DNA of 64,000 nt from Hormiphora californensis (GCA_020137815.1 CM035355.1:1798001-1862000), one strand, 5' to 3'; shown: positions 29,346-60,805, numbered from the stretch's first letter. Notes: a model not told the origin generated them from the sequence alone. A program made the numbers and translations.

Positions 29346-32300
29346 CTAACCAGATTTAACTTTGGTGATGCCATGTGAAACTGGCACGGCCTGTCCTTCC
29401 GCGTGGATTGCTGAGAAAACAAGTAGTGTGTGTTAGACATGGAGTCAGGGCGTAGGACGAATGTAGTGAAATGTAAGAGAGCAGTTGAATATTGAACAAT
29501 ATTTAGAAAAAGAGAGAAAAAGTGAGAAAAAGAGGGAGAAAAAGAGAGAGTTGAACTTACTCTCGTAGACAATGGTCATTGAACTTCCACTAGAACTTCC
29601 ACTGGTTCGGCTCATACCACCAGAGGTTTGCCTGCAACAGGGATTTACAGTTAGGTAAGCAATACAAGCTGACAGCAGTGAGATACTGCTTCAATAAAGT
29701 CTACTTTCATGATCAAAAGTGATCCTGAGAATCGAAATAAACGGGCATAATGAGTAGTAGGGGGTGAAGAATAAAAAGTTATTATGTTACCTTGGAGTTC
29801 CGCTGGGGTAGACCTTCTGTACAGTTTTGGATGTGTACCCGGTGTACCCTCCACCGTACATGGCGGGGTGTCGGAGTCCGGGGGCACCATCAGGTGGCAG
29901 GGGACCTGGGGAGAAAGGGTGGTGAGGAATTGGGGAAAAATAGGGACAGCTAAAATGGAATAATCATGTTTTGTAAACATGAACTTGTTCAATGATTCAC
30001 TGGTTTAACTTTTGATGCTCCTTTGTGGAAAGTGAAACGATTGTTCAATGTTCATGCAACTCACCCATATTCTCAAAGTGAACATTATCAATGGCAAGAT
30101 CAGTGAATGACCTCTCCTCTCCATGGGGGTTCTTGCACTGGTGACCCCTCACAGCCGATATCTTCAGAGTTAGCTTGGAGGAGGTGGCGATATAGTATCC
30201 CACCCTAACTGTATACCAAGGAGACATACTGGGATACTTGGATGGCAGGGGTATCATGGGAGAGAAGTGGACCTGAGATCCAAGTTGGACTCTGAATTGT
30301 CCACTGCAGTGTCCCCATTTGTAGAGTAGAGCCTGCTCGAATATAGCCACATACATGTAACCCTTTTGGAGGCCGGTGATTGGTGTAGATATCATCTTGA
30401 TGATGATGTTGTTACTGTTTAACCTCACAAAGGTTCCTCCACTCTTACTGTTCTTCAGGATGCTTGCTCCTTGGAGCGTTGTATCAGAGCTGAGAGTATC
30501 CGACCCTGGTCTTTACCAACGTTAGTCCATCCCTTTGGCACCTTGCCATTGTGATCATTGCTTGGTGCACCCGCTGTGAAACCACCGTTGGAAATCTTAG
30601 GAGCATCGTATGTCTCCTTGAGACGCGTCACAAATGTGAAACAGTCTGCCTTGACATTAGTTCCCTTGGTAATCCTCCTGCACTTCTTGGTCTTTTTAAC
30701 CTTGAGACACAGGTTGAAGAGTTTCTTGCCCCACTTGGTCTGGTAGCACTTCTTCCCAACTTCCACCTTCTTGGTCTTCCATTCACCGTACACTGTTTTA
30801 TCAGCTGCCTTGGGCATGGCAACTATCTTGAACTTTCAGGTTCTCTATTAGCAGTAGCGAGACACCTTGTGCTTGCAGTAGGTGTCAGTGGTACCCAGTC
30901 CACTCTCTGAAAGTAGGATGGAGGTAGGGAGGGGTTAGGAAGTGGTAAACACTTATAAAACGAATTGGATATTAGCATTGTATTGTAAAGTGGTAGCATC
31001 TAAATTTGGTGTATAATTGGAGTATGTAGTAAGAACTAAAACTCACTGAATTTGCGACAGAGCTGGAACTCAAATACAGTAATAGTTTCATCACTATCAC
31101 TGGCAGTGTAGAATGTGTTGATGTCCTTGCGGTGCTGGTGGTATGCAAAGTCATCCTTCCACGACTTGATCCACGCGTTATCTGATAGGAGGGGTGTGAA
31201 TTAATGCTGTAGTAGGAGTTTTAGTGGGATGTCAGGTAGATATCAGCCAATAAAACAGTTAGAATAATAACAACTGCTTGAGAAGTGAGAAACAAAAATT
31301 GAAGACAACTTACATTCATTGATGTCAATGTTAGTTTTAGTGATCGTTCCATAGATAAACCAGACAGAGGGATCGTATCTGAAGAGTCCGATCTGGTAGA
31401 AGTACCAACTGTGGGCAATGCTAACATCCATGTACTTGTTGTGCTCGAAACCTGACAGGAGAGGGTGTCAGATATCAGCTGAGGCGAGGAAGGAAATGGA
31501 TCTGGTAGTTTCGGAGAGGGGGGGGGGTTAAGTTCACCCGGTGAACTATCAAAGGGAAGATTATGACGCTCTGTCAGGCCAATGCTCTGACCGCTGTTGA
31601 CGCTGAATGATGGTACTAAATTACCTGATGGGTAGTCCCAGGATTTCCAATCCTTTGATTCCAGAACGTACTTAGTCTCAGATTTCTTGACGAACCGACG
31701 GATTTTGTAGGAGTAAAGTGATTGACAGTACTTCTTCTTTCCTCCATCTACAGGAATGACATGAGTAGAATTAGGGCTGAGTTAAAAATTGAAATTAAAT
31801 TACGCTCTCGAGGTGTTACTTTGTGTAAAAACTAAAGTAAAGACTTAAGACAGCTGGTTGTTAGTTAAAACTAACCGTAAGTCTTTTCCCAACACTTTTG
31901 TAGTCTTGACACATCCTTGTCGACAAACCAGCCCTCTGTCCTATCGGGCAGGGGGTACTCTGCCTCCTTTGTGGAGATGTAGTGGGCAAAGTCCTCTTTT
32001 TGGTAGAACTTCTTATCCAGAATGTAGAAACCTGGTAGATATATGGGTTAACACGCTGTAACCATGGTAACAGGAACTATCAGAAATACATGGTAACCAT
32101 GGTAACACTCACACTGTGGGCTGGTGTAGGCGGTGATCTTGGCACAGTTGAACCCTCCACTAACGATCTGTTTGCAGATCTTGTAGGAGTGAATGGTATG
32201 ACAGTATTTCTTACTCTTCTTCTTGTAGGTTACCTTCTTACACTCCTTCTTCGTGGTTATCTCTGTGGAGAGAGAGAGTTGGGGTTAACGGTGGTTAACG

Positions 32301-35300
32301 ATCGCAAGACTTGTCAAGGTTGCTCTTTAGATTGAACTTCTCGAAACGACAACGTTGTGATGCCAGACATGTGGTTGTGTTGTTCTTTGAAACGTTCATT
32401 GTTATGTTCTAACCCTCGGAGCTCGCGAAAAGGAGGTCGAGCTAGGCTTTCTATGATGTGACAAATAATGTCCCTATAAAACTGATAGTACGTACTATTG
32501 CCGATGAGAGAGAATCCGTAGTACTCATCCAGATCACATGCATCAGGGTATTTCTTACGGAAGTGGGCCACACCCGTCTCCTTGATTCCTGCTTCCCATT
32601 CCTTGTTCACTGGCTTGTGGTCCTAAGAGGGGGAGGTAGGAATGGTTAATGGGGGTGGGGGAGTGGTTAAGGGGGGGGGGGGGTGGTTAATGGGGGGGGG
32701 GGGTTTGAAAGTTGCTGATATTAAAATTGGGATGTTGTAGGTAGGATTTGAGAGGTGGAAAACTACTACGACTTGACCAAGATTATCCAAACTTCATCTC
32801 GACTTACCTTGAAGCAGGTGGGTCGTTTGAGTGTCTCAATTTCCTCACAACTCTTTAGATCAGTGGCCTTGCAAATCTTGGTCTTGTAGGTATCAGTACA
32901 GTAACTAAATTCATAACCTCCCTTGTTGCTGTTGTAGCACTTGGTAGACTTGACACTCATAACTCGTTGCTTGGAAAAGAGAGCGAGTTTTTAATAAACA
33001 AAGTTTCAACCCCGTCTCGACGTATTGCTCTGACCGTGGTTGAGAATAGGGTCAGATCAATGCTCTGACAGATTAAGGCGTTATGGTTACGGTAGTTATT
33101 GGTAACCATGGCAACTTCAGGTACCTGGTCATTGTAGGTGGAGCAACACTTGCTGCAGCAGTGGGTGAGGTTATCATACCCGAATCTGACATAACCCTTC
33201 TTCTTCTTACACGGAACCTGGTTGGGGGGGGGGTAGTTAATTGGGCAATTAATTGGACAATCAATTGAACAATTAAGAAATGTTGGACATGTCTGAGTAG
33301 TGCAAATATTTAGAATACCATGCATATCTTGATCTACCGAACCCTCACAGCAATAAAATGCGGTGTGAGCCAAACCATGCATACCTTGAGTTTTGGTAGT
33401 TCGGTATTCTTGATATCATATGCGAACACTTTGGTGTAGTAATCTTCCTCACTCATGTGTTTCAACTTGGTAGGCTGGTCCCAGGTGGTCAGAGTCTTAC
33501 ACTTGTTCTTTTTAGGCTGCGGAGGGGGGACGGTGTTACCATGGAGGAGGGTGGAGACAATGTGTGTTATCATCGACGAGTTTAGAGAAGATTAAAAACA
33601 ATGTGTTACCATGGAAACACGACTACTCACGTTGTCAAGGTGGAGTTTCTTGCACACTTTGTACACGTTCATGGCGTGACATCGCTTAGCAACCACATTT
33701 CCATATTTCTTGGTGAAACACTTCTCCTTTGTGGTGACGTCACCCAACACAGTCCAGCCTGGAGGGAACATTGCAGGTTAGAACTAATCCAGCAGCTGGA
33801 GGATTATTGTTTGAAAAAGGATAATTGTAGGCAGTAAAGTCGAATTTTTTAATCAAGGGACAGGGGGCTGCACATTCAGAGAGGTCGCACGTGACAATCG
33901 AGATCAAGTTCCTGACAATCTTAAAACTTGAACCTGGAACCGTTTGAAAGATAATTTTAAGACCTTTTCAACGCAACCAAAATCAAGTCTTTATCTTATC
34001 AGGAACAGGAGATATGAGCGAAAACGTTTAGCACACGCAAATCGACTTTTGTAAATGCGCGGCCCCCTGTCCCTTGATTAAAAAATTCGACTTTAGGATG
34101 GGGAGTATATATTCAGAGTATTTTAATCAGCAACAAATGAAAAATAGAAGAATTACCCGGAATAACTTTCCCTCGCTTACCATCGTATTTGTTCTTGTCC
34201 AGGGAGTTAACAGGGATAATCTTGGTCTTGATGAACGCCTCCCACTTGCTCTTCCAGAAAGTTAACTTGATCCTGACCCGTTTGAAACAGGTGGGGTAAC
34301 TCCAACTGGTGACATCCTTACATTTGAGGGCCTTGACCCCGTTATCCTTGGTGATGATCTTGCACACACTGTACTTGTAGAGATTGTGACACTTTTGTAG
34401 GGTAGCTGTACCCACCTGAGTAGAGAGAGAGGGGGAGATAAGGAGGGGTAGACCAGGGGTTTAGACGAGGGAATAGGGAGAAAGGTAGAGTAGTGGGGGG
34501 TTAGTGATGTGAGTTGGAATGATAAAGTAGGGGAGGTAGGTCGTAGGATATAGTAGGTCGTGGGATAGTTGTCGTGGGATAGTTGTCAGTGAAAATACTG
34601 TGCAGCCCAACTCTTTACCTTTTTCTGCCAGCACTTTTTCTCCTTCTTGATATCTCCGTAGACAAACCACTTCTTGTACTGTACACAGGGTGTTTTGTAC
34701 TTGGGTACTACCTTCTTCTGTAGGTACTTGGTGAATATCATCTTCCAGTGGTCTTCCAACTTGAACTGGGGGAACACTGGGAACAAGGGGGAGGGGGTTG
34801 GAGAGGGGGAGGGGAGTAGTGGGGGAACACTGGGAACAAGGGGGATGGGGTTAGAGAGGGGGAACTTGAAAAAAGAGGGATTACTGTCATGTCTTCCCCG
34901 CGAAGAGGGGGTAAACTAAAGTAAGGGACAGTAATGGTTCGCACGTAGAGAATTTAAATATTTTACTGCATCATAATTATGAATTGCAAACTGATTTAAT
35001 TACCCTTTGGCTCGTCCCAGGTGACCCTCTTTGCACAATCACTAGGCATCTCTTCAGCCAAGGTGGGCTTCACGCAGAGATCATACTTGTAGAGCTTGTG
35101 ACAGAGTTTAGCTTCCTTTTTACCGTACTTCTTAGAGAAACACTTCTCAACACGCTGAATTGCTGTGGGAGAGAGACATGTGTAAAACAAGGCTGGATTC
35201 GGTGGAAGAGAAATAAAAAGTCAATAATGGAGAGACATATCATTGGATTTCTTGACTTTCAGAGAGAATTAGAAACTTACATTCGACAATGACAACCCGT

Positions 35301-38300
35301 CCCTTATATTTCTTGGCGTCCATGCTGTACTGTGGTTTGATCTTCTTATCAATATACACAGCAAACTTCTCCTTCCAGAAACTGAGGGCCTTCTTCTGGT
35401 GTTTGCACCCCTTGGGGGCAGTCCAGGTTGTATACTCCTTACACACGATCTTGGGCACCTTGGTCTCTGCGATATGAGTGGGATATTAATGGTACATATC
35501 TCTTAAAAATATAACCTTTTTCTCGATAATAATGAGTCAAATAAACTGTTAAATATACAGATAAACTGTTAAAATGATGAGTAGGGCGTAGGCCAAGAGG
35601 TGATATACTTACTTTTGCTAGTTTTGCAAATCTTGTAGACATAGAGATTCTGACAGTGCTCGAAGGTGTACGTTCCATCCTTCTTGGCAACTGAAAAAAG
35701 GGGGTATTAGGGAACTGGAACATTGATTTGATTCGATAAGAGCGGTTGCCATGGGGACCCTACGCACGAGGGCCAATCACTGAAACATGACAGGGATATT
35801 AGCGAACTAAAACATGACAGGGAAACTAAAACTAACCGTATTCCTTCTTCCAGCACTTCTTCTTCCTGGTAATGGCCTGGTACACATAGTGATCTTTCGT
35901 ACAACTTCCCTTGCTATACGCATACTTTGGTGCCACACCACTCTTGACGTAGTGATCGAAGATCTTCTTCCACAGCGCCTTGGTATTGATTTGGGAGAAT
36001 GCTGGGAGGGAGAGAGAGGGTGTTAGCTAGCGAACCTTGGGTGCACCGGGGAAGAGAAGGTGTTAGTATAACGAACTGGGGGCGCTGTGAGGACTGGAGA
36101 GAGGGCGAGGGATATTATGGTACTGACACTGGCGCACAAACAATACAGTTTACCATAAACTGGTAGATTTGAAACACACACTATGACTCACAAAGAGACA
36201 AACAATCAATGACTCACAAACAGACAAACACTCAATAACTTACTGGTAGGTTTGTTCCAACTGGTAATCTTGACACACTTGTAGGTGACCTTTGTATTGG
36301 TACCAGTAGCCTTACACACCGTGTACACACTCAACTCGTGACACTTCTTGAAGATGTACTTCTTTTCTGTAGGAGGGGGGAGGGGTGTTACTTTATTTCT
36401 GTAGAAGGGGGATCAGTGGGGGGAGGGGTGTTACTTCTTTTCTGTAGGAGGGGGAGGGGTGTTACTTTATTTCTGTAGAAGGGGGATCAGTGGGGGGAGG
36501 GGTGTTACTTTATTTCTGTAGGAGAGGGGAGTGGGGTGTTACTTTATTTCTGTAGAAGGGGGAGTGGGGAGTGTTACTTCTTTTCTGTCGGAGAGGGGAG
36601 TGGGGATTTAGTTCATTTCTGTAGGGGGGAGTGGGGTGTTACTTTATTTCTGTAGGAGAGGGGAGTGGGGTGTTACTTTATTTCTGTAGAAGGGGGAGTG
36701 GGGTGTGTTACTTCTTTTCTGTAGAAGGGGGTTGTTAGGGTTTTTTTCTTCTTTTCTGTAGGAGGGGGTTGTTAGTTCTTTTCTGAAAGGGGGGGGGGTA
36801 TTACTATAGAAGCAGTAGCAAGGAAACACTCTGTTGGGCTAGTAGCGATTGCATGGGAGAGAAAGGGGTTGCTACCAATTAAAATTGATAAGTATGGCCA
36901 CCTTAGTCTGGATACGAATAAGGGATTGGAATGCTCCTTTTCTTTTAGAGCATACATTCAAATGTTCATATAGTTTTGGTAACTTTTTTCCGCCGACTCA
37001 ATAGCCAATTTCTTTCCATTAACTTCCTGTTTCTCTTACTCTCTCTATCCCCTCTCTCTCTATCTAACCCCCACCTCTATCTAACCCCCACCTCTCTCTA
37101 ACCCCTCTCTCTCACTCTCTCGTTTTCTTTCCGTGGTAGGTATCAGGGCTACGAAGGGCAACATGTGTGATGAGTAGTGCTCACTCCTCCTCACCACCGC
37201 CCCACCAACCCTCCTCTGAGAGGAGGTGTGCCTCCTCACTTATTTTGGGTAAAATCATGTTCGTCTTGTATCTCGTCCTTGTCCTGACCGGCGCCTTGGT
37301 TTCTGCCGGAGATACCGAATGTCATTGTCCAAGGGTAAGTTATTAATGTGGCTCCGCTTTGCCCTCAAGAAGAATATTAATTTGATACTGGGCTCCGCTT
37401 TATTTAGATCACTGGGCCGGATCATAGTGTGGTGTTTAACTCCCCTACTAATCTTTCAGGTGAATTCTGACTCGTGTGATATAAACACCGGTAGATTCAC
37501 ACTGCAGTGTCCGACTGGAAAACCGTTCATCAAGAAGGCATACTTCAAGGATTGTAATGATGAGATTCCGAGGATCTATGGTGTTGACTGCGTAGCAAGC
37601 AAGGCCGAGTGGGACAGTACTGCTGAATGCACTGCAACAACTGGACCGTGTAGGAAGGAAAAAGAAGTTCTTACCCACAAAGTACTTTAGAATGCGTGGG
37701 ACTGATATATTGTTGGTTATTTAACTATTAACTATTAAGTTATACAATCTTTTGTTGGACTTTAAATATATACGTGATATTGTGTGAGAATCTGTATTTT
37801 TGTAAAAAACGTGTTACATGATTTATTTCCCCCTAAAGGAAAAACAGTAAAATTGCTCTCCGTTTTTTGTGTACTATTTAGACCCTTCCTCTGTTATCCA
37901 AAAAGCTGCTGCTGTCCAGAAAGCTGCAGCTAGCAGGATTTGGACAAAAATGCTTGGACAGGCATGAAAATTGAAAGGTGACGTGAGAAGTGAGATTGAG
38001 ACTAACCGTAAGTTCTAGTCCAACACTTCTTCTCCTTCTTGATACCATCAGTGGTGAGGCCGTATCCGGCATACTTCTTGGCTGGGACAGGATACTTCGT
38101 GGAAATCTGTTTAATGACCATGTTGAACTTCTTTTGGTAATAAGCCTTTAGGTTGACCTTAGAGTAACCTGATGGAAAAGAAAGGGGTGTTAGGTTTGCG
38201 GGGGGGGGGGGGGGGGGTACCAACCTATTTTTTTGTATTTTTTTGTATTTTTTTGTACGGTCCGTACAAAAAATAACCAAAATTCCCTGCTTTTTCCGTA

Positions 38301-41300
38301 CAAAAAATACAAAAAAATACAAAAAATACAAAAAAATATACTGCTGAAGGGAACTTCTTTAGGGCCCCCTATAAGTCTCTAGAGGTTTGCGGGGTCCTTA
38401 TACTGGCCTGTATAGCCCTCTAGTTTCGTAGTACTCATAATCCCATGCTTTTTCCATGCGAACATTACCATGATTAAGTTATTCTAGACCTGAACTTGCT
38501 CCAAATCCTAGTTGGGTAACAGCAAAATATGTCGGGATAGTGCCCAAGCTTTATTTTCTGATGAAATTTCATTTTTCGGCCGAATATGCCTACTTATTCC
38601 CCCTCATGCCTGGAAAAAGGAGGCATAAGCAGGCCGAAAAACTGAAAAAGCCGAATCGGCCTCTCTCCCCCGGCCAGTTGTGCGCGCGCTACATTATATA
38701 CTCTCAAATCGCAGTCTATTCAGTTCCCCCATGGTGTAGTGGTTATCGCATATACTTGACACGCAGAAGGTCCCGGGTTCGAAACTCGCCTGGATCATTT
38801 TTTTCAAAACTTTTTAAATACTAACACTTGGTATAGCACTAAGTGTAAATCAATTAATTTCAAAAACTCGACCGTTTTTTAGACTATTAAATTAAAGTTC
38901 CACTATCTTGAACTATTATCAAACTAACTTAGACCACTGGAAAAAATCGGCCAAAATGGGGATAAATTTTGGCCATTCTCGGCCAAAAAATATGCTGGGA
39001 CACCGGGTTAGTAAGACTTGTTCTAGTTAGGAGTCGTGGGGACGGGGAATGGTAAAATAAACTAAATAAACACTCTAGAGGCCTTTAAAGGCCAATAGAA
39101 GGACCTCGAGCGCCTCTAGAGACCTGTAGAAGGCACCAAAGAAGTTCCCGACAGCAGTAAACTTTTTTGTATTTTTTTGTATTTTTTTGTATTTTTTGTA
39201 CGGACCGTACAAAAAAATATTGCCTGCTTTTTCCGTACATCCGTACACAAAAATGGTTGATACCCCCCCGGTTTGCGCTGTCTCCTGCACACCTCGAAAG
39301 TCGAAACTTATTTCAGAATGTATAGCGTGAGAACGAGTCTGGTGCACGCAGGGTTTGAGTAACTTTGGGAGGGTTACTCAAGTAAAGTTAGTTACTTCTT
39401 TAAGGTAAACTTACACTTAGGTTTGGTGTAGGAACTGAGTGTTGTGCACTTCATGGTAATCTCAGTTTTACCAGTCGACACCTTACACACAGTGAACTTG
39501 TACATCTTACCACAGAAATTAACAGTATGACCTGAAGTAGAAATATATATATACATGTATATGGTAATATATGGTAAAATCCTGTAAATTTGTAGAGGGG
39601 ACAGGGAAAAGTGGTTAAATCATGTTGTTGAGTAATCAGGAGAAAAAATGTTTTTGAGGGGAGTGTTTAAGTGGTTATATTGGACACGTGGGAAATGATC
39701 AAGAGAGGTGTGGTTAAGAGTGAAATAGTGGGAGGGATGGTAAAGAGGTAATATTGCCTCTTTACTATCCAGTATCCCTCCCACTCATATGAGTTATTGA
39801 GTTACACGGTTGAAGACATGGGAAATCTTTTGGGCTCCCTGGGATTAATGAGAGGAAATAGACACGCTATATTTTATGAAAACATAACCTATCCATTGGG
39901 AGCGCCCCCATAAAAAAGTCGCTTGGCAAATTCCCTCGTCGCTCGGCAATTGGTTCGGCAACAACAGGTGGTTTGCCGAGCCAGTCGCTCGGCTAATCAA
40001 GGAAGTCTCCGTGATTTCACCGCGTTCTTACAGAAAAAGCACATTTTTTTAGCACTTTGTATTTTTCAGCAGGAGATTTTGAAAAAAAGTGCTGAAAAAA
40101 TGTACTTTTTCTGTAAGAACGCGGTGAAAACACGGCGACTTCCTTGATTAGCCGAGCGACTGGCTCGGCAAACCACCTGTTGTTGCCGAACCAATTGCCG
40201 AGCGACGAGGGAATTTGCCAAGCGACTTTTTTATGGGGGCGCCCACATGTGGACAATTGGGACATTCTAAACCCAGATCCCACCTTTACTATAACAGTTT
40301 ACGACTGGTTTGGTAAATCAACTATTGCTATTGATCATAACATAAAACGTACCCATTGGATCCTTCTTCCAACACTTTTTAACAGTTGAAATATCTCCCT
40401 TTAGCTTATATCCCTTGTACTTCTTGCACTGAAATGAAAGGTTAAAGTAGGTCTCATATGGATTGAAGTATTACGCATTTTTGAACGCACGTGTAAACAT
40501 CTACGTACCTGGGGAGTGTACTTCTCGGTGAGATACTTCACAAAGTTCTTAGTATACATGGCCTTTAGGTTTGTCTTTCCGAGGCAGTTCAGCTTAGTAG
40601 AGGTGGTCAGCTTCTTGCACTTCATCACCTGCTTTCCTGTAATTAGGGGTTAGGATGGTATTGGGGGTTCATTAATACTGGGGATCGTTTTAGGATTCGG
40701 AGCAGGAGTGTGGACTGACGAAGCATTTGAAATGAATGCATTTTAGTAAGGGCCACTAAGTCAGTAAGCATGCAAGATATGAGCATGGTAAGATTCGTTA
40801 CTTTATCTAGGAGAGAGAGCAGGTTCACTAGGCCCTTGTTTACCGCAGACTGACTTAGTGGCCTCATTTAGTAGGAATTCTCAAAACATCATTCTGACCT
40901 ACTAAATTCCATATCATATGATTGCTTGCTAAACTAATTTAAAAAGGGCTCTGATTGAAATCACTTACCCTTGACGGTGCTGATAGTACACAGGTTGTAA
41001 GTGTACAAGGTTGACACATTTCTGGAACTTGACCTTGTTTCCATAACTCTTGGCATAGCACTTCTCTTTGGTTTTAACCGCTCCGTTGATCGTGTACTTC
41101 TTTTTCTTCCAGGTAGCACACTGGATGGAATAAATGTGTGTAAATAGGGAGGCAAGGGCTAAATGTGGAATTTCGCTAGCCCATAAAAGGGATGGGAGTA
41201 AAAGCTACGGAGCTAATGAGTACATGGCGATGGTACAGGTTATTGTGTTTGTTACCTTGGTAACAGTTCATGTGTTTGTTTGTTACCTTGGTGATGAACT

Positions 41301-44300: not shown

Positions 44301-47300
44301 AGTCCACAACATATGCAGAGTTTTTTCATAGTCCTTTCAACTTTATTTGAAAAGAATGTCTAGGACTAATAACCGTGACGCCGCCCCATGTGGCCCATGT
44401 TTGTGTACTTACTGGCAGTGGGTTTCTGGTGGCACAGCATGGCGTCCGTTTTGGCCTTTAACTTCCACGACTTGAGCGAGTACTTCTTCGCTAGGAGCTT
44501 CGGCTTCACAATGGTGACATATTTCCTGAAGTAGACAAATATTGGTGAATTCAGGAAGCGGCAAGCATCTCCGACTGAAGAGTCGAGTGGAAGAAAAGAA
44601 GCGTGCCTGCTATTTTACAAAGAAAGGTATCAGTAAGATTAACTTACGCGTAAGGAATCTCATCAGCAGTCATTAGGTTCATGTTGCTGGAGATTATCAT
44701 GGGTTTCTTGATTCCATAAAGACCGACGGGAGTGAATCCAGTCTTCACCTTTTTACATGGTTTCTTTCCTCCCTTGCACACCTTGAACGTGTAGATCTTG
44801 ATGGTTTTCCTGTTCTTGTATTCGCCCACGGCACTACAGTACTTTGTACGGCCCTTGCGAACCCCTGAAACAGAAAAGTGTGATTGTTGAATAGTACCGG
44901 AATGACCCGAGGAAAACTGAGAAGATTAGCAGAGGTTTTTTGGAAAAGGATAGTTAGTTTGATGAATCTCAATGAACTTACATCCGGTTGCTTTCCATTT
45001 TTTCTTGTTGTACTTGGTGGTGATGTAAGATTTCTTACTGTATATCATGATCTCGTTGATCTTTGCAGACTTGCCCTTGTACGCAAAAGCTGAATGGGGG
45101 GTAAATTAGTTTAATTGAAACTTACTATTAAATTGAAATCGTTATTTTAAATGTTGTTTGTATAGGTTTTTCCCATCCGTATCCGTGGAAATCTAACAAG
45201 AACATGTACCTTTAGGGAAAGTACTATCAATGGCCTTGACACAGTATTTTGCACTCTGGCAAGCCTTATATCGGTACCAGCAGACACATTTGTTTTTCTT
45301 GATCTTGCATTTCTTCACCACCTTTCCAGCGATGTACCACTTCTTCGTTGGAGTGAGGTGCGCTGGGAGAATACGAGGTTGTTAGGGAAATCCGTCAAAA
45401 TGGTGGAAATTTCAGCGGAATTACATGAGAGAAAAAGAGATGATATTCTAAAGAATTCAATTTAATGAGTGTGGGTGAGGAAGGGATAAAGTGACGGGGA
45501 AGTCAGGGTGGAGTTAAGTAGCATAATGGTTAGGTGGGGGTTATAATTCATATTATAATGCAACTGTCAACTTTAGAGAAGAGAGATAGATACTAGATAG
45601 TAGAAAGGAGAGTACTTTTAGATGAAGCTTCTTCTTAATTTAGCAATGTGTGTGTCAGCGAAGAACAAATTTTATGATTAGGTGGCAGAAGTAAGTGAAG
45701 CTCGAGAGATAGATGAAGCTTTTCTTCTTAAAAACTGTTAATCTGTCTTAATTTGCTTAATATATGATTGGATTGGATAGTTTTAATAAAATATGATAAT
45801 GTAAAATATGCTTATGTTAATGTACTCACATGATGGAACACGTTTCACGTAGACCGTCGAACATTTCTTGGTGTTTTTGTTGAGGCACATTTTCAGCGAA
45901 TAATAGTCCTGTCTATTTTTATCCTGACACTTTTTCTTCTCTGAAAAGAGGGATGGTTCAATGGTATACTTCTAATTTTAACTTAAACTATATATATTTC
46001 ATCAACTTATTTGGTAGCTTACTTTTTGGGAGCTTTTTGATCTTGCAAATCGTCGCGGGTGATATTTCTGAAACGGTATATTTTTAGAAGCTGCTACGTT
46101 CAACCAACGTAGGTGCTGCCACACCTTTTTGTAGATTATCTTTGTCTCAACCCTTTCAAAGATGTCCTTCCTTCCCTACCCCACCTCCATGTTATGATAC
46201 TTTTGCTAATTACTATTTATAAAGTCAAATTCAACCATTTTGAACTCACTTCCTTTGATAGTGTATTTTGAGAGGGGGTACTTGACAGCCATTTCCTTCG
46301 GAGAGTAGATGTAGTTCTTAACCGCGGGTCGGTAGGGGAATCCTTCCAAACTTGTCTTCATTAGAATCACCTTAACCTTCTTCACCTTGTACGCTAGATT
46401 TGTTCAGGTGTTAGTTTTTGCCTTAACACACTTACTTTTTTCGAAGGTATGATTATTGTTCGTTTTGAGCTCTGGTTTGAGTCGGTTTGCAGGGTTCAAC
46501 ACGGGGCCTGGCTCTGCCAAACAGTGTGTAACTGAGTATATTGCCTTACTTGGTGGTTTGTACTTGGTGACCCAAACTTTGCAGAATTTCCCATTGCTCT
46601 TGCAGATCTTGTATCTCCATTTTCCTTTCTTCGTCTTTCTCAACTCTGTAAATGAGGGCGGTCAAATTCAAAATCTCACCGTGATTCATCTTTTTTAATT
46701 CTCTCCTGCTCTCCTCTCCCTGAATCTCTAAATACAACTCGTAAACCGCACAACGTCACGACAATTTCTTTGTCTCCCTCTCTTTCTTTCACTCTCTCTC
46801 TTTCACTCTCTCTCTCGCCCTCTCGTTGTCTAGCATCTTTTCTCACACAGCCAAGATTGTAATAACCATCATTTGGAATGTAAAACGTCTATAATGATTG
46901 CTTTTTAGTTCCACTATGGTACCTGTCTTTCTGTACTTGACTCTCTCGTTTGGTTTGGATTGATCAAACCAGAGAGAGAGAGAGAGAGAGCAAGAGATAG
47001 AGATTTAAATCACTATACCTATGATATCTCTCATTACATTGTCTCTCTTTATCTCTCTTTATCTATACCTCTCTGTCTCCCTACCCTCCCATCTGTCTAT
47101 CTCCCTCTCATTTTCAGTATACGTACTTCCTTTGCGGACATAGACGTTCTTGTCGTATTTCAGGATCATATACCGAACATGATGACGCACCATTTGGTCC
47201 GTGATCTGCTTTGTAGTTCCCTTGTACTCCAGATCTGCAATCAAAGAAGTTGTTAGGTAGAGGAGTGTTTGAAATGTTGATATAAATTTAACAAAAGTAG

Positions 47301-50300
47301 TCGCGGTTATATTCCCTAAAATTAGGTATAAATTACCGTAGGGGAAAGCACGGGACTTTGTAGTAAAGCAGGAGGAGAGCTTCTTGGCATTGCAAGCGGT
47401 GAACTTCCAGAAGCATCGGCCTCCTCTTCCACCACGTCGTCTTTTACCACCCTTCCTTCGTCTTCCCTTTCTTCTCCTTCGTTTTCCCTTCCTGCGTCGT
47501 CCTTTGCCCCTTCGACGTCTTCCCTTCCTGCGACGTCCTTTGCCCCTTCGACGTCTCCTTCGACGTCCTTTCCTTCCACGTCTCCTTCGACGTCCTTTCC
47601 TTCCACGTCTCCTTCGACGTCGCCCTTTGCCCCTTCCACGTCTCCTTCGACGACCTTTCCTTCCGCGCCTCCTTCGTCGTCCTTTCCTTCCACGTCTCCT
47701 TCGACGACCTTTCCTTCCACGCCTCCTTCGACGTCCTTTCCTTCCACCCCTCCTTCGTCGTCCTTTCCTTCCACGCCTCCTTCGTCGCCCCTTCTTTCCA
47801 CGCCTGCCCTTACCTCTCCTTCCACGCCTACCCTTGCGACACTTCCGTACAATAGCTGAAAATTGGTTGAAACATCATCTCCTGGAAACTACAATTCGAC
47901 ATTAAACAGCAGCTAGATCTATTACCATTACTCGCCCCTTTTACCCCCTTCTACCCTACTCACTCGACTTGACGACATAGCTTTTCCTTGGTTTCATATG
48001 AGAGTAAGGGATAACTCGGGTGTAGACGACAGTGGTTTTCTTCCCCTTCACGAGGGTAACCTTGTAGAACTTCCGGACACGGGCCTTGGCACAATTCTTC
48101 TTTTTGGTGATAGGTTTACCAGCACAGACCTTGGAGTCTTCCATTTCTGGGGAAGGGGAGGGTTACATTAGTTGAAAATATATGGGCGTTGTAATTCTGA
48201 ATGTGTATAATCTAAAGTATCTTTGCTTATAAAGGGATTGCTGGTAAAGCGCTCGACAGGATCAAGATTCTGGAGCTGATTACAAAGTAATACAAGGTTT
48301 TTCAATCGATTGAAAAACCTTGTATTACTTTATAATCTAAAGTATGTAATTAAAAGAATAATATACTTTTGATTGTGTGTGTAGGATATTTCTTGAGGAA
48401 TCGCCTCCATCCAATAATCTTGATGGTAGACCTGTAAATATGAAGTAAAAATATCTAAAACATCTACGACCATCTCATAAATGAACTCGACCGTACTAAT
48501 TTGCCAATGAGATAATAACGCCGGGAATTGAAATCTAATAACCAGCAATGAACTTTCATATCTTCCTCTCAGATATATCCTATTGCTTGAAGTTCATTTG
48601 TCTCAATTACTATCTTTATTTATTGATCTCCCATCTTCTATTTACCGGTATGGAAGTCCATCCAGTGACTTCTTGTAGTAAACCGCCTTGAAGCCCTTGT
48701 AGCCAGTAGGCATGTAGTAAGTTCGGAATTTTCGACAAACCTGTAGGAGATGGGTTAAATTGTTATTATTAGATCTGGAAAAATAAGCGCATTCAAGTGC
48801 GTCATACTATATGTGTCGATGTGGTATTTTATATTGTTGTTACTAATTCCCGTCGCTGTTTCCAATTCCACTCTACTTAATTGATACAAGAAAGTTGGGA
48901 ACATCTAATTATTGGTAACTGTCGTATTATTGGCTGGTAGAACATGTGAACTTGCATTTCTATTGTCACTCAGTTCCACAACTACTACCGGCACTTGCAC
49001 ACAGACACAACTGTCTTACCTTCTTGTTTTTGGCACTGCACAACTTGAAAACCCAGAGCTTTTTGACACGTTTTGGTTTTCCGACCAGGCGCCATTTCAC
49101 AGGATCGTATTTTCTGTGCAGGTACTGGATGTCATATCGGATCATGCGCATTGTGATCGTTTTAGCACCTCCTGAGAATACAGTGATTTTAGAAAGAAAC
49201 ACCAATATTATTGTTAACCCATGAAGGCAAACTAATCCATTGTACAAAATGGCTAGTTATTGAAATTAGTTTTCTTACCAACGAATTTCATTCCCTTGGG
49301 GAACTTTCTGGAGCTAGACCGAGCGCAGTTGGTCCACTTTTTACCCTTCTTCTTGCAAACACGGTACTCGAATCTGATTGAAGGGTTAAAAAACGATTAA
49401 TCAATAAGCCCTTAATCTTTGCATAAAACATAATTTAAACACCATGTATTAATTAATTATTGTTAAAAATAGCTTTGTTACCTGCACTTCTTCTTGCCCC
49501 GCTTCTTTCTGCATCGTGTGCGAATCCTGCCACGGAGCCGGAAGTTCTTTCGAGGTCGGAAGTAACCGAAGGGAATGCCACGAAGGTAGATGGTGACCTT
49601 TTTCTTTGTCTTCGTGTTGAAGAGCACCACTCGGTAGAGCTTGACCACCTTTTTACATTTCGCCTTTTTGGTGCGAGCCTTACCCTTACAAGCCTTGATG
49701 AGTTTCCAGGTTTTGACCCTCCAGATTTTGACCTTGTAGGTACGTCTCGCCTTGGCTTGGGAGAAGATGCGAAGAGTACTTGTGTAGTACAGACCACCAG
49801 CACTCTTTTTGCGAAGCACCTTCTTCTGCCACCTCTTGAAGTCACTAGAGGGAGGGAAACCGATTGAAAATGATCACATTAGGGAGTTTAAAACATAATT
49901 TGCAAATGGCAGTTACACGTATATCAGGTAAGAAAAATACACAACCGCTGATTTACCGATAAAGGCTGAAGCTGTGCCACTTGGCAGCTCCACTAAAGTT
50001 GACATGAGTGATCTTCTTAAATCCAATTCTGTGTCTGTAGGCCGGTTTGGTGACGTGAATTCCGTTCACCACAACGTTAAATCCTCGCTTCAAGTTTCGA
50101 ACAGTGAATGAAAAGTAGGGTTTCTTGGTCTTGAAAGGCCACCTCTTGGGTCTGTACTCCCTTCCCCATCCTCCCTTCTTCGTATTCATCACGATTTGTC
50201 CCCTACCAGCAGGCCTAAAGTCCAGGTGGAACGCAATCTGGAAAATTGACGAACTGTTGGAACTAGCCGGATAACTTAAAAGTAGCATTTCAAAATGTAA

Positions 50301-53300
50301 AAGCACTGAAAGCAGTATGCCAAAGGAAGTTAAACTTACATGTTTTCCCGCCCAAAAGTTCATGGTCCACTTCTTCCTGTTACTGGTACTTTGACCAGTG
50401 ACGACCATGAAATCTTGTAGCCTGATCTTGCCCTTGAAGGCATACTTCTTCCCGATGGTCATGCTCCTCAGACTCATAACGGAGGATCTGAAGTGCCTGA
50501 ACCAGCGAGCACGAGCAGCCTTTCCAAGACCGTTGAACCGATACCCGGTCAACAGCTTGAGAGCGATCTTGTGTTTGAACACGGTATAACGGGCTCCGTT
50601 GATGGTTATGTAGTATCCGATCTTGGCAACTTCAATCAGAATGGCGTATCGGTTACCACGGCCAACAGGGGGATATGGTCCAGTTACCTTGGAAACCATT
50701 TTACCTCCCTTGTAGGCACTAAACAGGACTGTTCCTGACGCTCCCCTTCTGAAATATTAAAGTAAGTAAGTAGCTGCACATTTTCCAATTTCCACATGGA
50801 AATTTGAAGTATTAGGAATTTAAACAGTAAGGAACTCACGCCTTGATTGTGATGCGAAGTCCCTCAACTCCCTTTCCTCGGATGGAGAAGATGAAAGTTC
50901 CAACCATGAAGCGACCAAAGAAGAGGAAGGTATCTCCCTGCTTGATCCCTTCCGCAAACTTGTACACTTTTCCATCGACAGGCTTCTTGTTCACAGGGTC
51001 TATTGGGGTAATTTTAGTTAACGAATGAGTTGGATGCTGTTATACTAGTAGTACTACCTTGGCCTGGTAAGTTTGATAGTAGTGCGGGGTACAGAGCTAA
51101 TCAGTAAGTTTTACTTACACATTCGGTATTTGACGGTGTAAGTGAAGATGTTGGTCAACACCGCCCACTCTTTCTTGGAAATAACTCCATAGGAGACGGT
51201 TGCTTTGAGCCATGAAACTTCACCACTGGGACTCTTCTTGGCCTTCCTTCCCCTTCTAAGGGTGTACTTCCTCCTTCCCCTTCGTTTTGCTTCATATGTA
51301 ACTCCACCGCAATCTATTAAAGTGTTTGAACTGTCTAAATCTTGTCTAAAACCTCATCAAAAGACGAAATTTCGATCATAATAAATGTTGGTCTAATAAC
51401 AAATTTGTGTCTTAAACTTACTAGGTCGGCGATTACAGACTCGAATGGCCTTGTTGAGCCTAACGAAGCCCCGTCTTCCTCGTCTACCATTGTAGCCACC
51501 AAGATACATGCCCTTGTGTAGGGTGTACCCCTTGACGGCCTTGAAGGAAACCTTGGCTGCTGATCGCTTTCCCTTTCCTCCAGCAAGGGGTGACATCCAT
51601 ATAATGTGCTTGCTGTTTCGTCCGTATACCTTCATTCCATTCACATCGATCTGTGCCAAACGTCCAGGAACGTTAACCCACCGTTTACCGGTTGGGAACT
51701 TGCGGCTCACTTGGGTTCGGTAGTAGATCTTGTCAATCTTGTTGACACCAACCACAATACCCCATCCGGAGGCGATCCATTTGAGGGCACCGGGGATTCT
51801 CACCCACTGAAATCATCGGAAATATTTAGATACTGGTATAGCAAAATAATCTGCCTAGCTCTGAAGGGAGCGCTATCTCGTTTGACATGTTCCTTGTCTG
51901 TCAGCTTACGCGAGCCCGAACAGACAGACTGCGTAGCATGGCAACCTAGCGTGGGGCCGTTAAACCAGAAATTAGAAATGGTCGAGGCACACGCCAGACA
52001 GCTCAGAAATAACGGTAACTATTAGGCACTAAAAAGCCTACCTTCTTTCCGCGCCTGTTTTTGTCTCCGTAAGTTCCAACTCGGTAGTAAATGTGGTGAG
52101 CCTTGTTGACAACCCAAACACCAGCACCGCCCACAGAGATCTGAATGGCAGCTCCTCCTACCCTCATCCACTTTCTCTTTTTATGATGCCGTTTGTAAAT
52201 TGCCATACCTTTGTTCACTCCCCAAACTCGGTTAAACTCACTCACTTCAATCTAGGATTAGATCGGGTTCAGTATGTAGAGACTAAAGACCAACTGGACA
52301 CTAAATAATATCTCTTAGCTTTTTCGAAAATTAAAATCTCTCAAACTGTGATTCTTCACTCTACCTACAGGCTACATCACTGATTTACCTTGACGAGTTT
52401 TCCTGCAATCCGTTTCCACTTGTGACCACCTAGCCAGCGGTAAATGTTCATCTGTCGGTTACAACCCCAAACCATGCTACCACCGACAGCGACGTGGGTC
52501 AGCTTGCCCTTGATCCGTTGCCACTTCTTCTTTCCTCTCCAGCGGTAGATGTTGTCGCTCTTGTTGACACCCCATAGACCCATTCCACCGAAGGATACAA
52601 CAACAAGACGACCGGGAAGACGTCTCCATTTGGCGGTAATGCGAAGAGAACCTAGAATGTTGATAGCGATTTAATTAGCTTAGTCTTAGTTTCGGTAATG
52701 TTTTGAAAGTCTACTACTCTACCTCTCCAGTATCGAACTCTGAGCCATGAGTTTTCACCACTTGGACTCTTCTTGGGTTTACGTCCCTTTCGGAGTGTAA
52801 ACTTCCTCTTGCTCTTGCTCTTTCTCTCCCAGGTGATACCTCCACAGTCTGAAAGGCGTGGTAGTTGTGAAATAGTTGTTAAAAGTGTATGATATGTTTG
52901 CATAATGATTATGTTGCATAACATGCAATCAAGTATGCAGTTGTGGGGCGTCAGTTTCACTTCCTGGACCTCTTACCTTTCCTTTTCCGGCAAGCCCGGG
53001 CGGCAGGTCTGAGGCGACGGAAGGCGATTCTTCTCCCTCCGGCGTACCCTCCAAGATACTTTCCTTTGTAGAAGCGGTATCCCCTAACCCACCTCCTCCT
53101 CCTTCGCCTTCTCTTTCGCCTACCCTTCCTACGACGACCCCTCCTTCGCCTTCCTCGACCCCTCCTTCGCCTTCCTCGACCCCTCCTTCGCCTTCCTCGA
53201 CCCCTCCTTCGCCTACCACGACCTCTCCTTCGCCTACCACGACGGCCTCTGCCTCTGGGTGGGCCTGGAGGTCCAGGAGGTCCCGGGGGACCGGGTGGGC

Positions 53301-53931
53301 CAGGAGGTCCCGGTGGGCCTTCGGGTGGGCCTGGAGGTCCAGGAGGTCCTGGGGGACCGGGTGGGCCTTCGGGTGGGCCTGGAGGTCCAGGAGGTTCTGG
53401 GGGACCGGGTGGGCCTGGAGGTCCAGGGGGACCGGGAGGACCACCGGGACCATCATCAGGTGGACCGGGTGGGTGCTCTGATCGCTTAGCTAGCTCGACT
53501 AGCTCTGAAGGGAGCGCTATCTCATTTTCTTCAAATGTAGAATCTGGAGCTGGATTCAAATTGAGAACGTCGGCATCGAACACATCTGGGGAAATACAAG
53601 ACCCATTTGATACAATAAAAACGTTTGGATTTACAGCAATATTTATGAAGGAGCACAAGTTTGTTTATGAAGGAGCACAGTATCTAACTTTCGAACCTTT
53701 GTCAGTGATGGAAATAACTGAACTTTCCGCATAGCCACCGATAAAAAGGCACACGTATCTGGAAATAAATGCCGCAAAGGTTAACACAAATGAGAAAAAT
53801 CAAAATCAACAACCATGCCAGCTACTTCTTTTGTAAAGGAACCGTAGCTCCGACTGAAATCCAAGATTTGTAATCTAATGGTTATACCGCACTTACAATG
53901 TTAAAATAAAAAGTTTATTCCGTTGCCTCAT
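29346..53931 (-). CDS. Giant secreted cationic multidomain precursor (~3,500 aa, ~50 exons): collagen-like, protamine-like, tectonin, galectin, Lys/Cys repeats, CBM-like; carries three frame lesions in the 3' half
   Basis: Hand-spliced exons, in phase at the junctions checked. Exons 53931-53897, 53758-53697 and 53585-52977 give MRQRNKLFILTLYVCLFIGGYAESS...ELVELAKR-SEHPPGPP. The join across 42930/42806 is in phase. The last exon ends HGITKVKSG* at 29346. Confidence 0.75.
33835..34095. mobile_element. MITE with ~40-bp TIRs
   Basis: TAAAGTCGAATTTTTTAATCAAGGGACAGGGGGC ... GCCCCCTGTCCCTTGATTAAAAAATTCGACTTTA; internal segment resembles an element in an IQCK intron (~4285-4500). Confidence 0.8.
36345..36790. 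repeat. Intronic minisatellite (~35-40 bp) built from a duplicated splice acceptor
   Basis: Repeated TTCTGTAGAAGGGGGAGTGGGGTGTTACTTTAT; on the minus strand each unit contains C-rich tract-CTACAG|AAA, copying the true acceptor at ~36367. Confidence 0.8.
37257..37690 (+). CDS. Nested antisense gene: 102-aa secreted protein with 8 Cys (exons 37257-37334, 37460-37690)
   Basis: MFVLYLVLVLTGALVSA signal peptide; AGG|GTAAGT donor and TTTCAG|GTG acceptor in phase 0; lies in an intron of the giant minus-strand gene. Confidence 0.8.
38201..39269. mobile_element. Non-autonomous DNA transposon with G/C-tailed TIRs and 8-bp TSD (GGTTTGCG), carrying a tRNA-like sequence
   Basis: GGTTTGCG at 38193-38200 and 39270-39277; ends GGGGGGGTACCAACC / GGTTGATACCCCCCC; subterminal (TTTTTTGTA)n and GTACGG(T/A)CCGTAC palindromes. 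Confidence 0.8.
38723..38797 (+). pseudogene. Degenerate tRNA-Val(GAC)-like sequence
   Basis: A box TGGTGTAGTGG, B box GGTTCGAAAC, anticodon loop TTGACAC and downstream T7 terminator; anticodon and acceptor stems are mismatched. Confidence 0.65.
39902..40242. mobile_element. Foldback MITE, near-perfect palindrome with ~155-bp arms
   Basis: GCGCCCCCATAAAAAAGTCGCTTGGCAAATTCCCTCG... is mirrored by ...CGAGGGAATTTGCCAAGCGACTTTTTTATGGGGGCGC. Confidence 0.88.
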
Positions 53932-54559
53932 ATTAGTGGCCATGCATTGTTACACACAAAGGGGGGTGCTGGTGGCAAGACTTCTGCTGTATGAAGCTGC
54001 TTTTAGACGAACCCTATAACATGAGAAACAATGTAAGACACAATGTTAGATTAGCGGAAATGACGTCAAATATATCGTGTTCAACAAGACGAAAAGGCCA
54101 TGAAACTACAAAACGGCCAAAGACACACAAGTCCACAAACATATAAAAGATACCCCGCTGTAGCAGCTACAAGCAACAAAGCACACACAATACACGCATC
54201 TAACCTCTAAAGGTCTCCAGCAACCTGGGATTTGATTCACTTCCTTGACGCATAACCAGACACACCCACACAACCAAAACTTCGTGGAAGACATGCTCAC
54301 ATCAATGAACTGGACACCAACCCAAACTTCAAAGGATATGTGCCACCCGGAACTCTTTAGAATGATGGGTGAAGGACTCATTTCGAGCTTTCGGAGGAGC
54401 AGTAGTTATGCCACGCGGCTAAGTGAGAGATGTGTAACCCTCATACGTAAGACTGTCACACGCACAGCTCTCTCTCTCTGTCCACCACCGTACTCTGATA
54501 TATGCAGATACAACCTCAGATACAGCAGACATCATGAGATGTATATAGTTTTGAGAATG

Positions 54560-55185: not shown

Positions 55186-56834
55186 TTACATTTTCTGTAT
55201 CTCGAAGAGTTTTACATTAGTCTCACACCAGATGGGAGGGGAGGTGTTCCGGAGAAATACCAGTCCCCACATGTATCGACGGAACCAGACTGATGTCGCT
55301 GAGTTCGGCTAAAACGGAGGATGGGGAGTCAAAACAGGGATCTGGTTGTCATGAGTCATCAGAAGAACAAACATGCTATCATTATCAGAAGAGCAAACGT
55401 CAAACATGCTATTTGCGGGGATAGAACAAGATGGAAATTCGTGCAGCAGTTGCAATCAGCTCAGCAGTCAGCATATGTTTCGGGCAGTCAGCAAGGTCAT
55501 TCGATCAACACAAAGGCACACAATTTGAAATTGACAAAAGAGTTCCACAAACAACATAAAACTGCAAAAATGTGCTTTTGGGCGCGACTCGCATTGCAAA
55601 TCAACACATTATTGAGCTTTTAAAGATGCTTCATTCAATTAGTGCCCCCATTATAATGATTGCAGCACCCTCCCCCACACTAGAACACAGTATAAATCAC
55701 GTGTCAGTTACCTGGTACTTCCTCATTAGAATCGGATGGGGTACTGGTAACAGGCCGACAAGGGTACCATTTTGTAGAAATGTAATTATCTCACTCTCAT
55801 CAGTCAGGTTTTTATCTATGCAGATCTTCTCAACCTGCAACAATTTGTTCAATATATGTTGTTGGGAATAAGACAAGATTCTAAATAGATGTCACCATGG
55901 CAACCCCTTCGTTACCTGGGGGACGAGCACTTGTAGTAGTCTCATAATCGTCTGTAGGGGCAACTTCTTCCTCCATGTGGCAACCTGAACAGAAAACATA
56001 GCACTTGAGGATGGGCTATCAAATTGCTCTTACTCTACATGAGGGGTATGATTTGATACATTTGTATTACAGAGAGAATTGTCTATAGTATCAGACTTAG
56101 CATAACCAAACTTTAATTTATTCGTCGGATACGATTATATAGACATTTATCTCTTGGTCTCCTTCATAAACAGATATCTGTGGTTCATTATAAGATGAAC
56201 AATATTCATCGCGGCTATATTGCTCGCGATCTATATCATTACTCGTCAATAAACACAGGTCAGGATATATCTCTAATTTATCTTTCTCTCTCTCTCTACT
56301 CTCTCCCTCTCCTCTCCTCTCTCATCTCATCCATTCCCACAAATTGAATATACGTGCTGTGTAAGCGATGAATAATATCCATAGCCTAGAATTGTAACTC
56401 TGCTGTAGACACACACATGGTTTCAGGAGGCCATGCGATCTTACTAAAAAATAATAATTTTGTGGCCCCTCGTAGGCCTGGTAGAGTTTGTGTTTAGCTT
56501 TTGTTTCCCGTAGTAGTAGGGGTATTGTACCAAGGCCAACCCTCTCTCTCTTTCTCTGATCATGCGAGTTCAGGGGAACCAAGATACCAAAATACTTTTG
56601 TTCATATCAATATTTTCGTTGCTTTTGTATTTTGAAAGCAGAGAGAATGAGAGATAGGAGAGAGAAAGAGGAAAAGGAACCGGGTGATCCCCTCTAAGCT
56701 ATGATAGCGCTATCTGCACCAGGTGGAAAGAAAAATAGATCTGGAGCGTGAGAATGGAAGAAAGGAAGATCTGAGATGGAGGGTTGGAGAGAGAGAGAGA
56801 GATAGAGAGAGTGAGAGAGAGAGATATAGAGAGA

Positions 56835-56894
<60 letters not shown>

Positions 56895-56902
56895 GATAGA
56901 GA

Positions 56903-56966
<64 letters not shown>

Positions 56967-59384: not shown

Positions 59385-59463
<79 letters not shown>

Positions 59464-60615: not shown

Positions 60616-60646
<31 letters not shown>

Positions 60647-60706
60647 CGAGAGAGGCTGAGAGAGAGATGAGAGAGAAAGAAAGAGGGAGAGAGAGAGGGA
60701 GGAAGA

Positions 60707-60750
<44 letters not shown>

Positions 60751-60751
60751 C

Positions 60752-60805
<54 letters not shown>

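Follow-up and report, generated by a model that had tools for sequence, protein, structure and literature searches.

A predicted giant polycationic protein with lectin domains and Lys/Cys-rich repeats in Hormiphora californensis, a tentative glue candidate

The closest described systems to the gene discussed here come from animal glues and from a candidate gene set for colloblasts. In the flatworm Macrostomum lignano, the protein Mlig-ap1 joins more than 3,600 residues of Lys/Arg-rich regions to a lectin domain; it makes up the dense core of the adhesive vesicles, is the cohesive component of the glue and works by charge, and polyanions such as heparin block attachment (PMC6410801). The sea star protein Sfp1 is a multi-domain granule protein of 3,853 amino acids (aa) with lectin domains, which is cut into subunits before it is secreted and forms the cohesive scaffold; lectin domains recur among the sea-star footprint proteins (PMC9382459). 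For Mnemiopsis, 189 'colloblast candidates' were defined as present in colloblast-bearing species and absent from Beroe and Haeckelia, and one of them, ML020113a of Mnemiopsis leidyi, is a protein of 2,242 aa with a signal peptide, TECPR repeats, two bulb lectins, a galectin, F-type lectins, EGF and Ig domains (PMC6278862). Here we describe a gene in a stretch of 64,000 nucleotides (nt) from Hormiphora californensis (GCA_020137815.1 CM035355.1:1798001-1862000; this whole stretch is called the window) whose predicted product recalls parts of these designs. Our favored reading, held tentatively and at slightly less than even confidence, is that it would be a polycationic lectin that is stored in granules and acts as a glue or cohesive protein, an analogue and not a homologue of Mlig-ap1.

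The gene lies on the minus strand, from an ATG at 53943 to a stop at 29346, where dozens of small open reading frames (ORFs) rich in Lys, Arg and Cys are found between 29.3 and 53.9 kb. An exon-chain search yielded 65 exons over 24.6 kb, and the spliced model encodes 3,714 aa in one uninterrupted frame that is kept at 64 of 64 junctions. The model protein has a pI of 10.62, contains 17.1% K, 10.4% R, 5.8% Y and 3.3% C, and carries a net charge of +821. Its predicted architecture is without known counterpart, and by general type it would belong with the giant polycationic, lectin-bearing secreted proteins. RNA contigs were compared over 41.5-54.5 kb, and contigs from a seawater RNA-seq run (X12; 96-99% identical) demonstrate that the lectin part and the first Lys-rich exon are transcribed and spliced in that sample. 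One contig bridges a 137-nt GTAAAT...CCTAG intron between 52389 and 52251, others start or stop exactly at the predicted borders 52042, 51119, 50999/50840 and 50340, and a further one lies inside the first Lys-rich exon (exon 12) at 49610-49779. Since these contigs come from seawater, the organism would be planktonic. The parts of the gene, in the order of the protein, are the following.

53897..53943, minus strand: exon 1, which holds the start codon and, of the predicted signal peptide, the basic n-region and the first part of the hydrophobic core; GTAAGT donor.
53697..53758, minus strand: exon 2, which completes the signal-peptide core and goes on to encode a small-residue cleavage motif and the beginning of the propiece; polypyrimidine-CAG acceptor, frame running into exon 3.
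52977..53585, minus strand: exon 3, with the acidic propiece to about 53473, the GPP region at 53472-53257, Arg/Gly tract 1 at 53256-53092 and the first half of a basic two-Cys module.
52759..52848, minus strand: exon 4, with the second half of the first copy of the basic two-Cys module; an internal repeat with residues 501-600.
51594..52651, minus strand: six-blade tectonin propeller in exons 5, 6 and the first part of 7; found by Pfam (PF19193) and in the PDB, with an X12 splice.
51119..51593, minus strand: second copy of the basic two-Cys module, at the end of exon 7 and in exon 8; internal repeat, with an X12 contig ending at 51119.
49957..50999, minus strand: two galectin domains in exons 9-11; found by Pfam (PF00337), with X12 contigs that match exon 9 exactly and end at 50340.
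42930..49844, minus strand: family A, 21 exons with four copies of a Lys/Cys-rich superrepeat; Arg/Gly tract 2 at 47838-47416 in exon 18.
42107..42805, minus strand: exon 33 (699 nt), with a KR site, a second acidic segment at about 42725-42630, Arg/Gly tract 3 at 42629-42189 and a basic tail.
30517..41983, minus strand: family B, about 28 exons with 13 units (11 full) of a Lys/Cys/Tyr/Trp-rich repeat of about 95 aa.
30065..30469, minus strand: exon 62, a predicted C-terminal all-beta domain, like carbohydrate-binding modules (CBM) and DUF642 by language-model features only.
29346..29905, minus strand: three small Gly/Ser/Thr/Pro-rich terminal exons and the stop; low confidence.

Tools for families, structures and searches were fed single exons, and the Pfam scan covers 62 exon translations, among which the curated cut-off was reached by five exons only, those of the tectonin and galectin domains. 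Tectonin (PF19193) scores 66.3, 44.6 and 48.0 bits on three consecutive exons against a cut-off of 30, and Hyd_WA scores 27.1 against 21; six blade motifs are found at model residues 278-497. An 87-aa propeller exon matches Tectonin 2 (5fsb) in the PDB with E 4.6e-27 and a fish-egg lectin (4ruq) with E 1.1e-08. Tectonin 2 of Laccaria bicolor and the fish-egg lectin share the six-blade propeller with the present protein; they are stand-alone proteins of about 230 aa, whereas the propeller described here forms a strongly basic part of a giant chain. A basic two-Cys module of about 70 aa flanks it on both sides, and its likeness to PAN/apple domains was judged by eye only, with intron-split halves that have no Pfam match and two Cys per copy versus the pattern of four to six.

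For the galectin domains, Gal-bind_lectin (PF00337) reaches 23.2 bits on exon 10 and 58.6 on exon 11 against a cut-off of 22.1, and 80.1 on the read-through ORF. When aligned with ten carbohydrate-recognition domains (CRDs) from five hits, the first domain has lost essentially all canonical sugar-binding residues, and the second has six of seven (His, Arg, Asn, Trp, Glu and Arg are kept, one Asn is replaced by Asp). This second domain is nearest to galectin-8 and galectin-9 CRDs in the PDB (E ~1e-12). Two adjacent galectin domains are also the layout of the tandem-repeat galectins (galectin-8, -9 and -4), from which the present protein differs by a first domain devoid of binding residues, a predicted signal peptide, a larger chain and a highly basic composition; classical galectins are cytosolic and leaderless. 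The lectin part is itself basic, with 12.7% K, 10.4% R and 2.7% D+E.

These lectins bring in the main rival of a glue or cohesive role, namely humoral or mucosal defense, in which secreted pattern-recognition lectins fused to microbicidal Arg/Lys tracts would form a coat on epithelia or mucus that agglutinates or kills microbes and would not serve in prey capture. Among solved structures the propeller is closest to Tectonin 2 and the fish-egg lectin, which are defense lectins, the second galectin domain has a galectin-8/-9-like CRD, the cationic charge is extreme, and the sequence by itself cannot tell defense from glue. However, a structural material accounts better than a soluble effector for the size of the protein, its collagen-like tract and its disulfide-rich repeats of roughly 2,500 aa; dibasic sites are found everywhere with no sign of discrete peptide release, and the analogy with Mlig-ap1 suits the whole design better. 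We regard defense as unlikely on balance.

Upstream of the lectins, the protein begins with a predicted signal peptide, judged by eye from a basic n-region and a hydrophobic core of about 14 residues that is split over exons 1 and 2. The acidic propiece that follows counts 11 D+E versus 3 K+R and has KR at its end. In the GPP region, 20 triplets, the longest run being seven, are arranged in blocks split by single inserted residues, and tandem repeats were detected by TRF at 53098-53442 in exon 3. The Pfam profile Collagen (PF01391) gives 21.2 bits on this region, below its cut-off of 27.2, and long uninterrupted Gly-X-Y runs, as expected of a collagen triple helix, are missing, so that the region is best called collagen-like only. 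A signal peptide, a KR-ended propiece and a short collagen tract resemble the layout of cnidarian minicollagens; the regular six-Cys pattern of the minicollagen Cys-rich domain has 0 matches in the model.

Three tracts of R, G and K with 55, 141 and 147 aa punctuate the chain, tract 1 holding 40 Arg and tract 3 93 Arg. The acidic segment ahead of tract 3 resembles the N-terminal propiece and counts 10 D+E versus 2 K+R; TRF tandem repeats are located at 42279-42559 in the same exon 33. Dibasic sites occur all along the protein and regular spacers are absent, and for this reason a polyprotein that releases defined peptides was set aside. A protamine or other nuclear basic protein was set aside in view of the signal peptide together with the lectins.

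With its collagen-like tract, its relation to fish-egg lectin and a polycation able to bind polyanionic matrix, the protein might also belong to some other extracellular material such as an egg coat or jelly layer, or a mesogleal or cuticular matrix, in which sulfated polymers would attach to the basic repeats, and glycans would be cross-linked by the lectins. Nothing specific stands behind this idea, and vWA, EGF, TSP, laminin and ZP domains are absent among the exon translations scanned; we consider it the least probable of the functional readings by a wide step.

Beyond the galectins, most of the chain consists of repeats. The family A superrepeat spans five exons and about 190-200 aa, and tract 2 (141 aa) lies within the four copies. 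Each family B unit has four conserved Cys and conserved Trp/Tyr positions. An AlphaFold2 (AF2) model of family B from a 16-exon alignment predicts a beta-hairpin (pLDDT ~86) followed by a weakly predicted helix, with a mean pLDDT of 64.5; Foldseek with this model found nothing in the PDB at E<=0.001. A family B profile reached a best E of 0.061 against PDB sequences and had no usable match in the ESM Atlas, and taken together neither repeat family has a match in Pfam, PDB sequences or the Atlas. A second run, X14, guessed to be RNA and carrying the same species label, matches at less than 95% identity, to single exons or low-complexity tracts only. Its matches at 41601-41710, 41880-41974, 46551-46640 and 48673-48724 fall on single exons of both families (~86-90%), and at least two end within a few bases of predicted exon borders. 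With identity below 95%, these contigs were read as paralogues and not as this gene, which suggests that expressed paralogues of the Lys/Cys-rich repeat families may exist elsewhere in the genome.

At the C-terminal end, exon 62 has its nearest ESM Atlas clusters in DUF642/CBM_4_9 (score 0.95, 185 of 256 features), with the ten best in one family or clan. It has no Pfam match at E<=1 and no PDB sequence match at E<=10, and AF2 run without an alignment predicts eight strands at a pLDDT of 37, too poor for a fold search. Alternatively, the protein stops 7 residues past exon 62.

A sequence-only reading of the window had already proposed most of this layout. The signal-peptide-like start, the acidic propiece, the GPP region and the three Arg/Gly tracts all lie where it had placed them, its tectonin propeller and tandem galectins are borne out by Pfam scores above cut-off on three and two exons, and both of its Lys/Cys(/Tyr)-rich repeat families were recovered, with four copies of A and 13 units of B. 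The CBM-like end that it proposed holds up as an all-beta prediction with Atlas neighbors in DUF642/CBM_4_9, and lacks a match in Pfam and among PDB sequences. It had also known of no protein with the whole combination, and here too our searches agree, since the giant matches of the galectin ORF are non-basic poly-galectins and the repeats match nothing in Pfam, PDB sequences or the Atlas.

Among 1.84 billion representative proteins, HMMER with the galectin ORF found 133 matches and no basic relative. The top giant matches, which have 1,900-3,800 aa, consist of tandem galectins and have an ordinary composition (4-7% K, 9-13% D+E). The sole close match is a fragment of 151 aa with 91% identity that reads into the intron, and we therefore take it to be a genomic ORF of a near relative. 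Word-based protein searches for longer proteins with the galectin ORF and exon 12 returned nothing, nor did scans of metagenome contigs with exon 12 and exon 7.

How far does the design agree with the known systems? With Mlig-ap1 it has in common that both are giant and, by prediction here, secreted, and combine thousands of Lys/Arg-rich residues with a carbohydrate-binding domain. Mlig-ap1 carries 17 EGF modules, vWD-C8-TIL and a C-type lectin, and the present protein has none of them; what it has, unlike Mlig-ap1, is tectonin, galectins, a GPP tract, nearly pure Arg/Gly tracts and Cys-rich folded repeats. Sequence homology between them was neither expected nor found. By this comparison the present protein would be an analogue of Mlig-ap1 and not a member of its family, sharing the design and none of vWD, C8, TIL or EGF. 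Sfp1 is likewise a large multi-domain protein with lectin domains, but proteins of its type are built on a vWD/C8/TIL framework that is absent here, and are not polycationic. ML020113a shares the signal peptide, the succession of TECPR and then galectin, a length above 2,000 aa and further beta-sandwich domains of the galactose-binding-like type. Two bulb-type lectins, F-type lectin domains, Ca-EGF and Ig are found in ML020113a only, and basic tracts or Lys/Cys repeats are not annotated in the InterProScan rows consulted. The shared order of tectonin and galectin, compared by domain annotation only, is suggestive, and is a circumstantial point in favor of the glue precursor proposed by the sequence-only reading.

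A signal peptide, a mass above 400 kDa, a charge near +800, lectin modules and about 2,500 aa of Cys-rich repeats together suggest a structural material that is secreted and binds both glycans and anionic surfaces. There would be up to three lectin-type modules, the third, CBM-like one being only a lead. In the glue reading, the protein would enter the secretory pathway, and the short, interrupted GPP tract may help chains to associate. While the protein is packed, the two homologous acidic segments could partly shield the neighboring Arg tracts 1 and 3, and cleavage at KR would remove these segments; with its charge near +800 the protein would condense with a polyanion in dense granules. Once released, it may bind glycans through its propeller, its second galectin domain and its CBM-like end, and anionic surfaces through its Lys/Arg surface, and the disulfide-stabilized repeats rich in Lys, Tyr and Trp could supply cohesion. 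The composition recalls mussel foot proteins, which are Lys- and Tyr-rich; catechols in colloblasts and cohesion by cation-pi interactions belong to the same background. If the organism is a ctenophore, colloblast granules would be the obvious site; a role in colloblasts is plausible, although we rate it as unlikely on balance. A further-reaching proposal would make the protein the main glue of ctenophore colloblast granules: a polycation-plus-lectin adhesive that evolved independently and combines two new Lys/Cys-rich domain families with near-pure poly-Arg tracts masked by acidic propieces and a trimerizing mini-collagen. This we also hold to be rather improbable.

Several observations weigh against a glue. 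The idea is drawn from composition and domain content. The acidic segments offer about 10-11 negative charges for about 42 to 119 positive ones in tracts 1 and 3. Lys/Arg-aromatic adjacency does not exceed what composition predicts (z -1.1 to +1.9), so no mussel-like Lys-Tyr pairing is seen. vWD, C8, TIL and EGF, which are typical of known cohesive glue proteins, are absent from the 62 exon translations at E<=1, apart from a lone EGF_CA row at E 0.11 with 13.2 bits versus 27. Tectonins and galectins are equally typical of innate immunity. RNA support is confined to 49.6-52.6 kb, plus faint cover at 45.8-49.3 kb. Finally, an apparent 1-nt frameshift near 41013, in unit 3 of family B, if not an assembly error, would end the protein near residue 2,400.

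The last two points also bear on whether there is one gene at all. The exon-chain search linked open frames through GT-AG introns of 40-3000 nt, using codon log-odds and splice-site weight matrices; GT-AG is thus found at every junction by construction, and the search was obliged to yield one single chain. The 5' end was set by reading the sequence, with a second in-frame ATG at 53931, and four micro-exons of 7-21 nt in a tandem repeat (37.2-36.4 kb) were deleted by hand, the junction from 38007 to 36366 being in frame without them. Exons at 31.5-30.9 kb and the last three (29.9-29.3 kb) are weak and of low confidence, and the absence of a canonical AATAAA within about 450 nt 3' of the stop carries no information. 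Control chains were computed with the same parameters, which had been trained on the model; the comparison is circular in this respect, and it rules out chance chains but cannot vouch for each exon.

Real minus strand: score 1173, 69 exons, 3,604 aa.
Opposite strand: score 12.5, 4 exons, 30 aa.
Another 26 kb of the window, best strand: score 81.5, 19 exons, 631 aa.
Three shuffles: score at most 8, 1-4 exons, at most 105 aa.

Introns show the usual pattern of modular extracellular proteins, namely an excess of phase 1 (42 of 64) and of symmetric 1-1 exons (29 of 63 internal exons), with a median length of 134.5 nt. Given the 29 symmetric exons, cassette-type alternative splicing is possible. 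Two DNA runs of a related species (~90% identity) span the entire 41.5-54.5 kb. Among the 15 joints listed, 12 are local alignment breaks, which all fall in predicted introns, and the other three connect distant low-complexity tracts or repeats with each other; the 12 indels listed also all fall in predicted introns, with exons making up about 54% of the stretch. These figures hold among the rows listed, beside which 36 further joints and 278 further indels exist. With the listed breaks and indels all intronic, the exons of the lectin part and of family A appear conserved and the intron interiors diverged.

Instead of one gene there may be a lectin gene with one or two adjacent arrays of Lys/Cys repeat genes on the same strand, or one gene with a decaying or alternatively spliced 3' half. 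One reason to consider this is the frameshift in unit 3 of family B, where the unshifted frame meets a stop that overlaps the donor, and the model crosses the site by a weak 49-nt intron and an 11-nt exon that we judge implausible. Long, repeat-filled introns of 821, 1,246 and 1,640 nt at 36-40 kb, the limited RNA support, a search that returns a single chain by design, and the X14 contigs that attest paralogous members of both repeat families point the same way. However, about 30 exons past the frameshift are still open, which makes an assembly error or polymorphism more likely than decay. A scan for further starts with ATG plus hydrophobic stretch gave 9 candidates, none convincing as an in-frame start of a coding exon, so that only one plausible signal peptide is predicted in the gene and no second initiator exon is credible. 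The frame is kept throughout, introns at the module borders are 112-124 nt and too short for a promoter and first exon, and the second acidic segment with its Arg tract sits in an internal exon that has no Met start. Overall, we consider several genes unlikely and a single gene probable. The single spliced gene of the sequence-only reading thus stands as far as the continuous chain and the RNA at 49.6-52.6 kb carry it, and is weakened by the frameshift and by RNA that covers part of the gene.

The introns of the giant gene hold features of their own. A G-rich tandem array of 34/69/74 bp occupies 36357-36775 in the 1,640-nt intron, and its 34-bp period recurs in the region. The largest intron also contains, on the plus strand at 37253-37690, an ORF of 145 aa with several Cys and no Pfam family. 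A near-perfect hairpin resembling a MITE or foldback element (39897-40247; arms of 162 nt, 96% complementary, loop of 27 nt) lies in the 821-nt intron. Two intronic spots have many contig ends and high depth in the assemblies of the related species, 53642-53679 with a summed depth of about 4,000 and 51882-51944 with surrounding bins several hundred deep; both look like high-copy interspersed repeats.

The window as a whole is eukaryotic and gene-dense. Neighbors include a DDT/WSD protein, a UCH-type ubiquitin hydrolase, a steroid 5-alpha-reductase, PRP39, a Hid1/dymeclin protein and a single-exon protease of the papain family. PRP39 occupies 26.0-28.0 kb on the minus strand, its exons beginning at about 28.0 kb on the same strand as the giant gene. 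The papain-family cysteine protease (62826-63998, minus strand, 391 aa, Peptidase_C1 E 2.6e-48) has its closest relatives, at 59-63% identity, in unnamed proteins from environmental or transcript-size contigs; its best named matches include a Bolinopsis microptera protein (38% identity) beside an insect protein, which would fit a ctenophore without being evidence for one. At 7628-12347, a 4.7-kb satellite of about 139 copies of a 34-bp unit (92% matches) accounts for the extreme GC skew of 0.54-0.57 at 8-12 kb. Two arrays of another 34-bp unit, as rotated copies with 98-99% matches, are found about 700 bp apart at 57354-57623 and 58335-58651, and (GA)n/(AG)n microsatellites of up to about 125 copies at 5829-6072, 56787-56963, 59385-59473 and 60555-60809.

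The colloblast adhesive has been termed 'an unknown proteinaceous adhesive' (10.1101/2020.06.27.175059), and Babonis et al. report no homology to known adhesives (PMC6278862); in a literature that was consulted mostly through abstracts, we found no paper on its protein composition. Whatever the function of the present protein, it adds two Cys/Lys-rich repeat families to those described, and offers an unusual case in which the lectin folds are themselves polycationic. If it is expressed in adhesive cells, it would be a concrete and testable candidate for the colloblast adhesive and would represent convergence with the flatworm design, a polycationic cohesive core with lectins. Should it prove to be the principal colloblast glue, it would give a first molecular handle on a cell type that defines its phylum.

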